Positions 10,635 through 55,888 of a stretch of DNA of 64,000 nucleotides are shown one piece after another. Below the pieces are notes generated by a model that worked only from the letters and a program-made list of their open reading frames with translations, was not told the origin of the DNA and did no database searches. The translations under genes and the position numbers were made by a program. The DNA is from Salinispira sp. (GTDB lineage Bacteria; Spirochaetota; Spirochaetia; DSM-27196; Salinispiraceae), in NCBI GenBank assembly GCA_965602015.1, contig OZ271918.1:608001-672000 (forward strand), given 5' to 3'. Position 1 is the stretch's first letter; each line of letters starts with the position of its first letter.

Positions 10635-10673
10635 TGCCCCGTAAGCCGCCAAATCAGCTGTTTTCGGGGCACT
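10635..10673. repeat. Short copy of the TGCCCC...CAGCTGAT repeat family
   Basis: TGCCCCG-TAAGCCGCCAA-ATCAGCTGTTTTCGGGGCACT; right half matches the ends at 45303, 50028 and 55870. Confidence 0.8.
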
Positions 10674-36911: not shown

Positions 36912-36930
36912 ATCAGCTGTTTTCGGGGCA
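36912..36930. repeat. Repeat-family end interrupted by the IS1111 insertion
   Basis: ATCAGCTGTTTTCGGGGCA; the usual continuation CT resumes at 38236 after the IS. Confidence 0.85.
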
Positions 36931-36954
36931 TATCTGAAAGCGGTGCCCCCCCGC

Positions 36955-37105
36955 AAGAGTTTTCATTGTTCTATTACAAAAATTCTGCAAATCGGTTTTG
37001 TCCGAGTCATATCTCCGCCATCCACGTGGCATGAAAATGTCCTTCCAGGGGTGTCGCAATCACTTTGCACAGCCTCGTATTCGCGCTGTAGCCCCAAAAA
37101 CGCGC
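36955..37105 (-). ncRNA. Predicted bridge/seek RNA of the IS1111 element
   Basis: Contains segments matching target (GUUUUUGGGGC, AAAGUG) and circle junction (UUUCAUGCCA, AGAUAUGA); ends approximate. Confidence 0.7.
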
Positions 37106-38158
37106 TTACCCCTGTCTGGACAAACCCGCTAATGCAGGATCTTTGTAATGCTGTTCTTTCTGCAATATCCAAAATATTGCTTCTGCTAAGTGCCGTGCCA
37201 CGGCGATTATTGCAACCTTATGATTACGTTTAGTACGAACTCTCTTGTAGAGTTTTACCGTATGTCGGTTCGCCCAATTTCTTTGATTAAGACAGGTTAC
37301 ATTAGCTGCTTCAGTAAGTGCCCACTTCAAGTATCGATTACATGCTTTCGATGTTCGACCATAATGAGTTTTACCTCCGCTCGAGTGAACGCGCGGCGTT
37401 GTACCACAGTATGATGCAAAATGTTCAGCGGTCTTAAAGCGATGTATGTCTCCAATTTCATGCACAATGACTGCGCTGAGAATAAATCCGATCCCGGGAA
37501 TGGATTTCACCAACTTCATTTCAGCATTTTCATCAAACGCTTCATGCATTCGTTGTTCGCAGTCGGTGATAGATTGCTTAATAAACGCGAGATTATCGAG
37601 CTTGAGTTTCATCATGGTGCGGGTATGCTCGGGGAGTTTTGGCATTACCTTCTTCATGGCTTCTGTACCTGCTTTTCCGAACAGATCGCTCACATCATTG
37701 AATCGAAACCCATATTTCTCGAACCCGGCATGAATTTGGTTCTTTTCACGTATCAACTCCTGAACGAACTGCATCCGGGTTCGATAGAGTTCTCGTTTAT
37801 CACGCAATTCTCCTGGTGGAATCCACACAGTAGGCAGTGTGCCTGCTTTTTGAAGTTTATTGAGACCTTCAGCATCGAGTTTGTCAGTTTTGTTAAACAT
37901 GGCCATCATCAATTTTGACTTACCGGCATGTACCAGCAAGGGGTTCATGCCGGCCTCCTCAATCTCATCCACAATCCAGTACCAACTTCCGATCGTTTCA
38001 AGTGCGACTTCCTGTCCCGGCTCAAATTGTTGGAGAAAATCACGAATACACCCGTGAGAATGTTCTATGCGCTGTGAGGATTTCCTTCCATTTTCGTCCT
38101 CAATTGCAGCCACGGTATACCGTTTATGGCTGTCGAGGGATATAATAGTATTACTCAT
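37106..38158 (-). CDS. IS110 family transposase/recombinase
   Basis: DEDD RuvC: SLDSHK, ALET, KTDKLDA; SIPGIG; HSSGG Tnp serine; RBS GGAGGAGG. Confidence 0.95.
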   Translation of the reverse strand: MSNTIISLDSHKRYTVAAIEDENGRKSSQRIEHSHGCIRDFLQQFEPGQEVALETIGSWYWIVDEIEEAGMNPLLVHAGKSKLMMAMFNKTDKLDAEGLNKLQKAGTLPTVWIPPGELRDKRELYRTRMQFVQELIREKNQIHAGFEKYGFRFNDVSDLFGKAGTEAMKKVMPKLPEHTRTMMKLKLDNLAFIKQSITDCEQRMHEAFDENAEMKLVKSIPGIGFILSAVIVHEIGDIHRFKTAEHFASYCGTTPRVHSSGGKTHYGRTSKACNRYLKWALTEAANVTCLNQRNWANRHTVKLYKRVRTKRNHKVAIIAVARHLAEAIFWILQKEQHYKDPALAGLSRQG

Positions 38159-38262
38159 TTGGTTGTCCTCCTCCGGTATTTAATATAGACCCTGACTGGC
38201 AGGATCTCGGGGGAGGCACCGCTTTCATACCATCACTCTAATAATGTACAAGGAGGGATTCT

Positions 38263-38370
38263 ATGAAAAAGAATCTGAAGTCTCTCATACGCAAAAAGCC
38301 TCAGGGCGACAAGAAGCAGGCTCAGTGCTGTGCCAAGGTTTCTCCCGTCGTTGCGGGCTGTCACGACTGA
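38263..38370 (+). CDS. Putative RiPP precursor peptide, 35 aa (MKKNLKSLIRKKPQGDKKQAQCCAKVSPVVAGCHD)
   Basis: Not in the ORF track; RBS AAGGAGG; Lys-rich leader and 3-Cys core; directly upstream of radical SAM/SPASM gene. Confidence 0.8.
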   Translation: MKKNLKSLIRKKPQGDKKQAQCCAKVSPVVAGCHD

Positions 38371-38457: not shown

Positions 38458-39852
38458 ATGGCGGAAATTCTTTCGAAACACAACATTCTCACCCGGCTTC
38501 ATAACAAAGACGAATGGCTCCTGGTCAATCTTCTTCATCAGCAGGCGGACATTATTGAAGCTGATCTCGCAGATCAGATTCAAAATGGTGAAGTACTCAA
38601 CGCTGGTATCTCCGGCCCGGAGTACATCGAGTTAAAAGAGAAGGGGTATATAATTGATGATGCCCTCGAAGAGTCGAAATTCCGGCTTGCCTACGGAGAT
38701 TTTATACGCGCCAGGGACGAATCGGAAGTTCAGGTTTTCTACGTGCCTGGGTATTCCTGTAATTTTGCCTGCGGCTACTGCTATCAGGAAGGTTATGAGC
38801 ATGCCGCCCATCCGCAACAGGACGGAGTCATCGATGCCTTTTTTTCATATATCGATCGCAGCCTTGCAGGACGGTCCTGGTACCTGACGATTTTTGGCGG
38901 CGAACCTTTGCTGCCGGGGCCCAATCAGCGTCGAATTGTTGAAAAACTGATTAAAGGCTGTAACAGCAAGGGTGTATCCCTGGCTGTGGTGACCAACGGA
39001 TACTATTTAAAATCCTATATCGATCTGCTCTCTACCGCGGACATCAGAGAAATTCAGGTGACTCTTGATGGTGTGGGCGATGTGCATAACCGGCGCCGGC
39101 CGCTCAAAGCATCGGTCCACGGTGACCGTGATCCCTCGAGTTTCGAGGCGGTTGTGGCCGGTATTGATGCAGCCCTCGATGCGGGTTTTGTTGTAAATAT
39201 GCGCACGGTTCTGGACCGGGATAATCTTCCGGCTCTTCCCGATCTGGCAGATTTTGCTATCAGGAAGGGCTGGACGGGCAGGCGGAATTTCAAAACCCAG
39301 CTCGGACGGAATTACGAGCTTCATTCATGTCAGGCGAGTCAAAAACGCCTGTACAGTCGTCTCGAAATGTATTCCGACCTTTTCGATCTCATTTGTGAGC
39401 ATCCCCGGGTCCTGGAATTCCATGTTCCGGCGTACAGCATCTCTCGCTTCCTGTTTGAAAACGGCGAACTTCCCATGCCCCTGTTCGACAGTTGCCCAGG
39501 GACAAAAATCGAATGGGCCTTCGACTCAAGCGGGAAGGTGTATGCCTGCACCGCTACGGTGGGAAAGTCTGGGCAGGAACTGGGATCTTTTTATCCGCAA
39601 CAGAATCTGGACACCGATGCTGTGGAGCTGTGGGAGGATCGGGATGTCCTCTCCATAGATGAATGCCGCAGCTGTTCGCTCAACCTCGCCTGCGGGGGGG
39701 GGTGTGCGGCGATTGCCCTCAACCGCAACGGCGGGCTAAACACACCGGACTGCCGGCCGGTTGATGCCCTCATGTCCCTGGGGGTAAGCCTGTACGCCAG
39801 CCTGGACTTACCGACGAGGACTGAACTATCAGGAGGAAGTGATGGCGGGTAA
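38458..39852 (+). CDS. Radical SAM/SPASM peptide maturase with N-terminal RRE-like region
   Basis: CNFACGYC, FGGEPLL, TNGY, QVTLDG; SPASM Cys: CPG, YAC, CRSC, CGGGC, PDC. Confidence 0.9.
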   Translation: MAEILSKHNILTRLHNKDEWLLVNLLHQQADIIEADLADQIQNGEVLNAGISGPEYIELKEKGYIIDDALEESKFRLAYGDFIRARDESEVQVFYVPGYSCNFACGYCYQEGYEHAAHPQQDGVIDAFFSYIDRSLAGRSWYLTIFGGEPLLPGPNQRRIVEKLIKGCNSKGVSLAVVTNGYYLKSYIDLLSTADIREIQVTLDGVGDVHNRRRPLKASVHGDRDPSSFEAVVAGIDAALDAGFVVNMRTVLDRDNLPALPDLADFAIRKGWTGRRNFKTQLGRNYELHSCQASQKRLYSRLEMYSDLFDLICEHPRVLEFHVPAYSISRFLFENGELPMPLFDSCPGTKIEWAFDSSGKVYACTATVGKSGQELGSFYPQQNLDTDAVELWEDRDVLSIDECRSCSLNLACGGGCAAIALNRNGGLNTPDCRPVDALMSLGVSLYASLDLPTRTELSGGSDGG

Positions 39853-44073: not shown

Positions 44074-45324
44074 AGTGCCCCAAAACAGCTGATCGAATCA
44101 ACATAACTCTTTTGCCAGTAGTCTTCTATGACACGATTACCGCTCATAGGAGATTACCATGGCATTTTACCCCCGATTCTGTCCGTACTCGGACTGCTCT
44201 CAGCATCATCGCGACAGAGAATCAAGCCGATGCTGGTTTGTCCGAAACGGCCACTATCACTGTCGCCGCCTCGGTTCTTCACAGCGCTATCGCTGTAAGC
44301 ATTGCCGTCGATACTTCTGCGAAAGCGCGTTTCACCTCGATTATCGCGCACATCATCGCCTCGATTACCGGCGCATCTTCTCTTCGATCAACTCGGCTTC
44401 CGGCATCCGCGACATTGCCCGGGAGTTTTATGTCACCGACAAGGTCATTCTCAATCGGCTGAGCCGATTGTCCCGTCAGGCAATCGCTGCCATGGCCCAG
44501 TTATTGAGCGATCATACAATCGATGAGGATATTGCCGTTGATGGGTTTGAAAGCTTTGTATATAGCCAATACTGGCCGAACAACTTCACCCTCGCGGTAG
44601 GTTCCGACAGCCAGGTTGTCTATGCGTGCGACTATGCGCAGATGCGGCGCAAAGGGCGGATGACCCCCGCACAAAAGCGCCGGCGCGATGAGCTCAATCG
44701 CCGGTATCCTATTGCAGGGGGACAAATTGCGCGATCTTTCCGTGATGTGATAAACACCATTCTTCCCAGGTGGAGGGCTTATTCATCGAAGAAGCCATGC
44801 TATCTCTTGAGCGATGAAAAACTCGAATACCGCCGTGAGCTGTTCGCTCACCGGGACTGGGCGGCGTTGGAAAATGCAGGGAAGGTACTCCATCACCGAA
44901 CCTCATCGAGGGTGGTCAGGACCACTGAGAACCCCCTGTTTCCGGTGAATTACCTGGATCGGGAGATACGAAAGGATCAATCCTGTCATGTCCGCCAGAG
45001 TGTGCAGTGGTCAAAATCGGTGAACAACAGCATGGAGCGGATGATGATTTACATCGCCTATCATAACCTGCTCAAGCCGTATCGGATAAACGGACGAAAC
45101 GATATCAGCCATGGTGAGGTTGCGGGGTTTGACCGAAAGCGGGTACTCACGTTGGCAAAAAGGATGTTTACACAGCGGGCCTTCGTTCATCATCTGGTGC
45201 TGGACATCAGCCAATGGAAGACCTGGCACCGGATCTGGAAGACACCGGTGAGTGCGCTAAAGATCGACCTACCCGATTATGCGGTGGCCTGAGGAGCGGG
45301 AAATCAGCTGTTTTGGGGGCACTT
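44074..45324 (+). mobile_element. IS1/IS1595-like insertion element with ~20-bp terminal inverted repeats
   Basis: Left AGTGCCCCAAAACAGCTGAT (44074-44093), right ATCAGCTGTTTTGGGGGCACTT (45303-45324), enclosing a single transposase-like ORF. Confidence 0.8.
44159..45292 (+). CDS. Putative DDE transposase (InsA-like zinc ribbon + HTH + RNase H-like domain)
   Basis: CP..DC...RNG.....QRYRCKHCRRYF; GIRDIARE HTH; VDGFE, LSDEK; YHNLLKPYR...SHGEVAG tail. Confidence 0.75.
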   Translation: MAFYPRFCPYSDCSQHHRDRESSRCWFVRNGHYHCRRLGSSQRYRCKHCRRYFCESAFHLDYRAHHRLDYRRIFSSINSASGIRDIAREFYVTDKVILNRLSRLSRQAIAAMAQLLSDHTIDEDIAVDGFESFVYSQYWPNNFTLAVGSDSQVVYACDYAQMRRKGRMTPAQKRRRDELNRRYPIAGGQIARSFRDVINTILPRWRAYSSKKPCYLLSDEKLEYRRELFAHRDWAALENAGKVLHHRTSSRVVRTTENPLFPVNYLDREIRKDQSCHVRQSVQWSKSVNNSMERMMIYIAYHNLLKPYRINGRNDISHGEVAGFDRKRVLTLAKRMFTQRAFVHHLVLDISQWKTWHRIWKTPVSALKIDLPDYAVA

Positions 45325-49902: not shown

Positions 49903-50045
49903 TGCCCCGAAAACAGCTGATTTTCCATCTGTAGATTATTGTGGTAGAAAGAGAAGGGTAAGTTTCTATAAGATTTGAGTAAAATATCAGCTATTTTTTT
50001 TCTGGTCAGGTAATTAGCGAATTTAAATCAGCTGTTTTGGGGGCA
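49903..50045. mobile_element. MITE-like non-autonomous element (143 bp)
   Basis: TGCCCCGAAAACAGCTGATTT ... AAATCAGCTGTTTTGGGGGCA, same ends as 44074-45324. Confidence 0.8.
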
Positions 50046-55744: not shown

Positions 55745-55888
55745 TGCCCCGAAAACAGCTGATTTTGTGGCGGTAACTCCTTATGTGGTAAATTACTAAT
55801 CGGGTTCTTTCAATAGGGTTGGATTGATGACCGGCAAATCCTAATCAGTGAACGGTTTGGATGCTTTAAATCAGCTGTTTTCGGGGCA
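55745..55888. mobile_element. MITE-like non-autonomous element (144 bp)
   Basis: Perfect IR TGCCCCGAAAACAGCTGATTT / AAATCAGCTGTTTTCGGGGCA. Confidence 0.82.

Follow-up and report, generated by a model that had tools for sequence, protein, structure and literature searches.

An IS110-family element of Salinispira with a predicted right-end bridge RNA aimed at the terminal repeat of another insertion sequence

The targeting of transposon ends by other transposons has been known since IS4321 and IS5075. A window of 64,000 nucleotides from the genome of Salinispira sp. (the whole stretch of DNA that was analysed; the genome is called G000 here) contains an IS110-family element inside a terminal repeat that also bounds an unrelated DDE element. 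The locus raises the question of what directs the element to this repeat. A sequence-only reading had proposed that a natural IS110/IS1111-type recombinase is guided by a bridge RNA from the right end of the element, programmed on a dispersed host repeat and acting at a TG/CA core. Both the insertion sites in the genome and the covariation among homologues agree with this proposal. We consider it very probable that this is an active bridge-recombinase element of the IS110 family with an IS1111-type layout, whose predicted RNA is aimed at the end-repeat of its host.

The element belongs to the IS110 family in the broad sense by the features tested (Table 1). Its recombinase scores above the Pfam cut-offs for both DEDD_Tnp_IS110 and Transposase_20, and it reaches 227 bits against NCBIfam NF033542 (cut-off 140). 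Across 66 aligned sequences, residues D9, E54, D92 and D95 never vary and S260 hardly does. The transposase forms a long branch without a close relative in a 51-row tree of its own clade only, and no named close relative was found in plasmids, where the best matches are about 32% identical. The CA core described on both sides of the element is present at 36929-36930 and 38234-38235, followed by CTCT. The subterminal inverted repeats (sTIRs) are perfect over 12 bp; over 18 bp, they carry one mismatch in the window copy and are perfect in seven of the nine full copies. Non-coding DNA measures 175 bp downstream of tnp, which encodes the transposase, versus 75 bp upstream.

Table 1. Features of the IS110-family element, its predicted RNA and the host repeats in the window
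Feature	Position	Strand	Remarks
IS110-family element body	36931-38233	minus	1303 bp between two CA/TG cores
Right target half	36912-36930	+	solo host terminal repeat, inner part; CA core at 36929-36930
Second core CA + CT	38234-38237	+	CT is the invariant left target flank (AG-TG on the transposase strand)
DEDD recombinase	37106-38158	minus	350 aa; D9/E54/D92/D95 and S260-G261 motif
RBS-like GGAGGAGG of recombinase gene	38167-38174		
Left sTIR	38210-38227	minus	starts 6 nt inside core
Right sTIR	36935-36952	minus	ends 4 nt from core
Possible -35 (TTGCGG)	36951-36956	minus	-10 (TATGAT) formed only at circle junction; 8/12 consensus matches, weak
Predicted bridge RNA	36987-37125	minus	target loop, then donor loop; 5' stem overlaps tnp stop codon
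Predicted target guide 1	37091-37101	minus	pairs top strand right of core (CCCC[CG]AAAAC) and core G
Hairpin between target guides	37068-37090	minus	
Predicted target guide 2 (CAAAG+UG)	37061-37067	minus	pairs bottom strand left of core
Predicted donor guide 1, corrected register ACAUUUUCA	37032-37040	minus	pairs left-end top strand and core
Donor-loop hairpin	37016-37031	minus	holds most of UUUCAUGCCA
Predicted donor guide 2 (AGAUA+UG)	37008-37014	minus	matches right end and core
Host element	44074-45323	+	unclassified IS1-like DDE insertion sequence; terminal repeats of about 19-21 bp
Host transposase	44159-45292		377 aa
Short unit, 143 bp	49903-50045		bounded by host repeat; empty potential target
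Short unit, 144 bp	55745-55888		bounded by host repeat; empty potential target
Further solo host repeat	10656-10671	+	empty potential target

The narrower label of an IS1111 element holds in part. The seekRNA systems ISEc11, ISKpn4 and ISPa11, as described in the sections of PMC11187229 used here, share with it a non-coding region downstream of tnp, a top-strand guide placed 5' of the bottom-strand guide, a transposase within 330-350 aa, natural reprogramming among relatives and sTIRs, which at 12 perfect bp fall within the approximately 11-13 bp given for strict IS1111 elements. Unlike those systems, the element has terminal extensions of 6 + TG + 4 = 12 bp rather than 7+3 or 6+3, and its C-terminal motif reads GT-P----SG as opposed to GL-P----S(t)G. 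Because it departs from the 7/3 extension rule of the same source, it is not filed under strict IS1111.

The flank of the IS110 element had been identified as the terminal repeat of the element at 44074-45323, and this identification is borne out: the window has seven matches where chance would give 0.05. The host protein has no Pfam match, with sub-threshold scores for IS1 and ISL3 only, and obtains 34.8 bits against NF033558 (IS1 transposase), below the cut-off of 100. Its structural model (pLDDT 90) bears a weak resemblance to DDE integrases and transposases (TM 0.22-0.29). Target duplication is typical of the IS1 family, and none was seen adjacent to the full host copies. Given the sub-threshold IS1 score, the DDE-like model and the lack of target duplication, we describe the host as an unclassified IS1-like DDE element. 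By the source labels that homologues of the neighbouring transposase carry, the organism is probably a free-living spirochaete.

The genome contains 12 full copies of the host, three of which bear the IS110 element at one end, and 124 ends of its main repeat, CAGCTGTTTT[CG]GGGGCA. The left repeat of the window copy (44074-44095) is one base short of the consensus. The host repeat also bounds 29 pairs of ends that form short units, 141-145 bp long in 28 of the 29, and it occurs in 42-bp perfect palindromes and as about 36 solo repeats. The interiors of the short units are highly divergent and unrelated to the host; their origin as internal deletions of the host was rejected, with only 10-nt matches found for the 143-bp units. 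A sister member of the host family (34% identity, with its own repeat) lies interrupted at G000:C1:2757300-2760735 and has short units of about 108-110 bp. At loci orthologous to that of the window host copy, genome G001 (locus L242, G001:C149) has a unit of about 143 bp with a variant host repeat, and genome G002 has a short stretch like its own family repeat; neither genome yielded an empty site of the host.

Nine full copies of the IS110 element (0-15 differences) and one broken copy are present in the genome. One of the ten is a tandem duplicate, so the copies represent nine independent sites. All nine carry AG-TG-CCCC in a single orientation on the transposase strand. The expectation that every copy lies in GGGGCA-CT is thereby confirmed at 9/9 independent sites, eight of them in host-family repeats: seven in the main host repeat and one in the repeat of the sister element, at the end of a 110-bp unit. 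The ninth, a single-copy site (G000 331373), matches only the 10-nt span of the guide without the rest of the repeat. The occupied sites give the target consensus AG-TG-CCCC[CG]AAAAC. Of 36 non-repeat AGTGCCCC sites left empty, not one has AAAAC next, a sequence with a chance of about 0.0008 at each site. Occupied ends of the main repeat are all of the AG type (7/7), compared with 75 of the 124 ends overall (P 0.026). Were AGTGCCCC all that mattered, eight of nine insertions in repeats would not be a significant excess (P 0.16), since 81 of the 118 AGTGCCCC sites lie in repeats. There was no support for a bias towards wobble as opposed to mismatch sites (3:4 vs 16:48, P 0.37) or towards full host copies (P 0.37).

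The window copy occupies a solo host repeat with no partner end nearby, just 3' of the stop codon of an ArsM-like methyltransferase gene (a match below model cut-offs). The same spacer in G001 and G002 contains neither the host repeat nor the IS. On its other side, the IS is followed by a 35-aa Cys-containing ORF (38263-38370) that is conserved in both genomes, and it therefore lies between this ORF and the upstream methyltransferase gene. A radical SAM/SPASM protein (38458-39852), most like peptide maturases at scores below cut-offs, comes after the ORF. Judged by their sequences, the two are a possible RiPP precursor and maturase.

Contigs covering the element are about nine times as deep as those of its flank; they probably come from the source sample itself, so the figure is not independent. 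The tenth copy (G000:C1:1707002-1709278) is interrupted by another element, presumably IS3-like from its end motif, and has lost part of tnp. A distant IS110 fragment (35%) lies near it at 1709857-1710216. The tandem duplication (G000:C1:3399670-3402532) comprises the element and 255 bp of left flank, and its new junction joins the right end, TG and the chromosome at a non-matching target site. This arrangement fits the half-match or tandem expansion published in two preprints, to the extent that their available parts describe it (bioRxiv 10.64898/2026.08.31.748434; 10.64898/2026.08.14.744561).

The insertion sites also bear on whether an RNA selects the target at all. The repeat might be found by the protein or through structure, either the CAGCTG palindrome or a host transposase complex, leaving the RNA match as a by-product. 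Eight of nine sites lie in repeats of one transposase family, as this would predict, the single-copy site could be a decayed repeat, and an extra structural layer is reported for ISPpu10 in the portion of bioRxiv 10.64898/2026.03.19.712850 consulted. Site 331373, however, is without the inner palindrome, so the palindrome of the repeat is not needed; the sister repeat carries a different palindrome; and homologues at 44-56% identity use unrelated targets, each matched by its own guides. We regard target finding by protein or structure as very improbable.

Guidance by an RNA, in turn, calls for a recognisable RNA. Its location in the right end stands as proposed, but the scaffold begins at about 37125, in the last tnp codons, and not within 36955-37105. 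The consensus fold consists of a long outer stem whose start is inside tnp, a target loop centred on a hairpin, and then a hairpin-bearing donor arm. In this fold, 96.3% of cells are paired, compared with 28-41% when it is slid, and 16 of 23 pairs show compensatory changes. The single-sequence fold of the element's own RNA is no better than shuffles (z -1.46). An Rfam search returned two chance-level matches only, and a search of the genome with the RNA model found only the ten element copies and no stand-alone bridge RNA among the 150 of 808 candidates scored. In a sample of the phylum, a bridge-RNA match was present in one of 150 other genomes (L244, G158:C6:140153-140284).

The match of GUUUUUGGGGC (37091-37101) to the target, read earlier as a target guide, is upheld: 10 of 11 positions are identical to the target bottom strand, which 3 of 2000 shuffles of the non-coding region reach. 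Its odd position was described as a G-U wobble; this is true in the window, but a U-C mismatch takes its place at four of the seven occupied main-repeat ends. This guide U faces the sole polymorphic base of the repeat, where G, C and T are all accepted, and it pairs perfectly with the A-bearing version of the sister repeat. The ACAGC/GCUGU hairpin noted between the target guides corresponds to a covarying helix. The left target guide, drawn as AAAGUG (37061-37066), is indeed there, though the geometry of the homologues makes it CAAAG+UG (37061-37067). Only AGUG of this second guide is matched at all nine sites, and the other three bases average 1.14 of 3 matches at occupied ends versus 0.65 at empty ones (P about 0.07). 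Guide 1 forms nine of ten Watson-Crick pairs at eight of nine sites, a number that only 2 of 52 homologues reach. At occupied main-repeat ends, guide 2 is matched at two to four of five positions; four or more are matched in 47 of 52 homologues. Specificity is thus shifted to one side.

Homologues provided a test of the guides. A single-protein search of the genomes gave no relatives, but a search with the 66-sequence alignment retrieved 161 loci, which with four added made 165. The 153 near full length were scanned for inverted repeats without an assumed geometry, and the 6-TG-4 layout recurred in this unsupervised scan; in one subgroup, where the repeat is two pairs longer, the sTIRs are 8 bp apart. 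A second pass, which assumed the 6-TG-4 layout and rewarded TG, yielded 120 elements, 115 of them with TG on both sides. The RNA scaffold, anchored on scaffold letters only, was parsed in 92 of these (28 failed). Short flanks, a core other than TG or a poorly parsed hairpin removed 25 more, and the remaining 67 reduce to 52 unique guide pairs besides the element itself; filters and duplicates thus left 101 of the 153 scanned loci outside the final test. The null distribution consisted of 2000 shuffles of DNA among elements. Relatedness among the homologues means that the z values exaggerate how independent the data are.

Target guide 1 covaries with the right target half (z 11.5, 0/2000 shuffles), matching at 1.00, 0.92 and 0.83 in positions 1-3 and fading beyond position 6. 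Target guide 2 covaries with the left target half (z 14.3, 0/2000), at 0.87-0.94 over four positions. Donor guide 2 covaries with the right end (z 10.7, 0/2000) and matches it in 52/52. When each target class (27) or donor class (21) is reduced to a single representative, all four guides hold at 0/5000 shuffles, values that relatedness continues to inflate. Fold and covariation, the checks proposed for the first model, thus leave three of its four guides as drawn and place one donor guide 5 nt out of register. Homologues at loci L031-L190 target other repeated sequences. TG-AC sites, which we take to resemble REP-like palindrome ends, occur in 49 of the 120 elements, and several homologue flanks are presumably tRNA genes.

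The misplaced guide is UUUCAUGCCA (37027-37036), which shows no donor covariation (z 0.3; 834/2000 shuffles reach it). With one representative per class, 2818 of 5000 shuffles reach its score. The cause is that CAUGCC belongs to the constant scaffold; what resemblance there is stems from the sTIR letters TTTCA. A register ending on the core, ACAUUUUCA, lies 5 nt away and gives z 9.6 (0/2000 shuffles); in the window copy, its nine positions form five Watson-Crick pairs, two G-U wobbles and two mismatches. Of the other donor segment, AGAUAUGA, AGAUAUG (37008-37014) is retained as a donor guide, with 5/5 positions matched in 52/52 homologues, and only its final A is reassigned to the handshake position.

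These donor guides decide how much of the RNA is likely to be used. The target loop alone might be functional, as a processed RNA of about 80 nt, with the ends recognised by protein through the sTIRs and the donor guides incidental. The sTIRs of the element are long and strongly conserved, its donor guide 1 is imperfect, and an 82-nt ISEc11 RNA with target matches is enough for movement according to the part of PMC11187229 considered. Against this, donor guide 2 tracks the right-end variants GAGA, GATA, TAGA, TACA and GAGG in 52/52, donor guide 1 covaries at variable positions (z 6-8), and the base after donor guide 2 tracks the target. An RNA that only seeks the target is therefore improbable in our view, and a bridge RNA with both loops in use is the reading we carry forward.

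The handshake bases add a further layer. Bases AU after target guide 2 (37059-37060) match the incoming left end; the base after this guide follows the left end in 52/52 homologues and varies in only a few. Bases AC follow donor guide 2 (37006-37007). The base after donor guide 2 follows the first base of the target in 46 of 52 homologues (z 7.5-8.1, 0/2000 shuffles); that it follows the circle junction or donor was rejected (z 0.7). Since it is the bottom-strand guides that the handshake bases come after, we infer a complex with the IS621 geometry applied to the opposite strand. In the element itself, the donor-loop handshake A faces a target C, as in five of seven homologues with C-starting targets; it pairs with the donor before exchange and not with the target after it. 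In the available text of PMC11208158, the analogous change in IS621 (G166A) strongly lowered recombination, and IS621-type handshake settings are given there and in PMC13626964 as having an inverse effect on excision. In IS621, a handshake setting like this A holds back insertion; if the same applied here, it might limit insertion or favour excision. The element has clearly spread in the genome despite it.

Taken jointly, these features might describe a large and distinct IS1111-like subgroup, with a TG core and a 12-bp sTIR spacer, whose bridge RNA has all four guides plus handshake bases and acts on the opposite strand from that used by IS621, and in which the donor-loop handshake A of most members with C-starting targets naturally restrains insertion or promotes excision. 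We put this composite reading forward tentatively and think it rather doubtful as a whole.

By analogy with the work on IS621 and ISEc11, the element would circularise by joining its right end, TG and left end, and the circle junction would create a promoter for transcription of tnp and the RNA, which the recombinase would then bind. The 5' loop would open the target, where guide 1 would take the top strand to the right of the core and guide 2 the bottom strand to its left, and the 3' loop would open the circle junction, followed by strand exchange at the TG/CA core. In IS621 terms, the core would be CA and the first strand exchanged would be the + strand of the window. Programming of the target loop on the end-repeat of an unrelated DDE element would offer approximately 75 suitable intergenic landing sites, and specificity would come mostly from guide 1 (nine of ten Watson-Crick pairs) and AG, with a mismatch tolerated at the polymorphic repeat position. 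Sigma-70-like matches of at least 10/12, counted as consensus matches, appear at the computed circle junction of 82 of 120 elements versus 2 of 112 integrated right junctions. No circle joint was found in four contig sets from one sample, and contigs drop rare forms.

What an insertion does to the host depends on where the host ends, since the repeat is split if the end is AGTG and not if it is TG. In a reading compatible with the guide model, the element could make harmless safe-harbour insertions at the outer edge of the host, with the repeat left whole if the host ends TG...CA. TG and the entire inner repeat are regenerated by insertion, the pair of bases beyond TG differs from one short unit to another (CT 75, GT 28, other 21; n=124), and the element of a relative (L195) has AA outside its left TG, all as expected of a harmless site. 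In contrast, the 12 full host copies have AG outside TG at each of their 24 ends, A[CG]TG ends occur in several related elements, and AG...CT is also found at the unit in the orthologous G001 locus. We see the harmless outcome as a real possibility, if somewhat short of an even one; disabling of the host end, implied by the earlier term parasitising, is plausible.

Like IS4321 and IS5075, the element is of IS1111 type with sTIRs, and its insertions, in a single orientation, fall at one base within the terminal repeat of another element. Unlike them, its host is a 1.25-kb unclassified IS1-like DDE element with short units and solo repeats instead of a Tn3-family transposon, and its target sequence differs. 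With IS621 and ISCro4 it shares, so far as the excerpted accounts go (PMC11208160, PMC11208158, PMC13626964; PDB 8wt6, 9t56), a DEDD and serine recombinase, a 2-bp core, two loops with four guides, handshake covariation and a guide mismatch that is tolerated against a repeated natural target, in the case of IS621 one mismatch against REP (PMC11208160). It differs from them in carrying the RNA in the right end, in guides that read the opposite strand relative to tnp, in a TG/CA core in place of CT, and in a donor loop that is an open arm with a hairpin. Protein similarity to them is weak (E 1.7e-11) and mainly C-terminal. The donor guides and handshake bases visible here by covariation are not described for the seekRNA systems in the sections of PMC11187229 used, and in the IS1111 literature, including PMC13604230, handshake pairing is discussed only for IS621 within the text covered. 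A literature search found nothing on IS110 bridge RNA in spirochaetes; members of the clade may already be listed in Durrant's Supplementary Table 5 or in Siddiquee's supplements.

The main habit of the element, homing on the ends of another transposon, is already known from IS4321 and IS5075. The present analysis adds a recently active, multi-copy recombinase-guide pair with a TG/CA core, for which the predicted guides are mapped in full. Natural reprogramming across 52 members supplies direct sequence evidence in the dispute over whether IS1111-type RNAs seek the target only or also bridge the donor: donor guides and a handshake base alike covary within the clade. A concrete prediction is also gained, namely which strand would exchange first.
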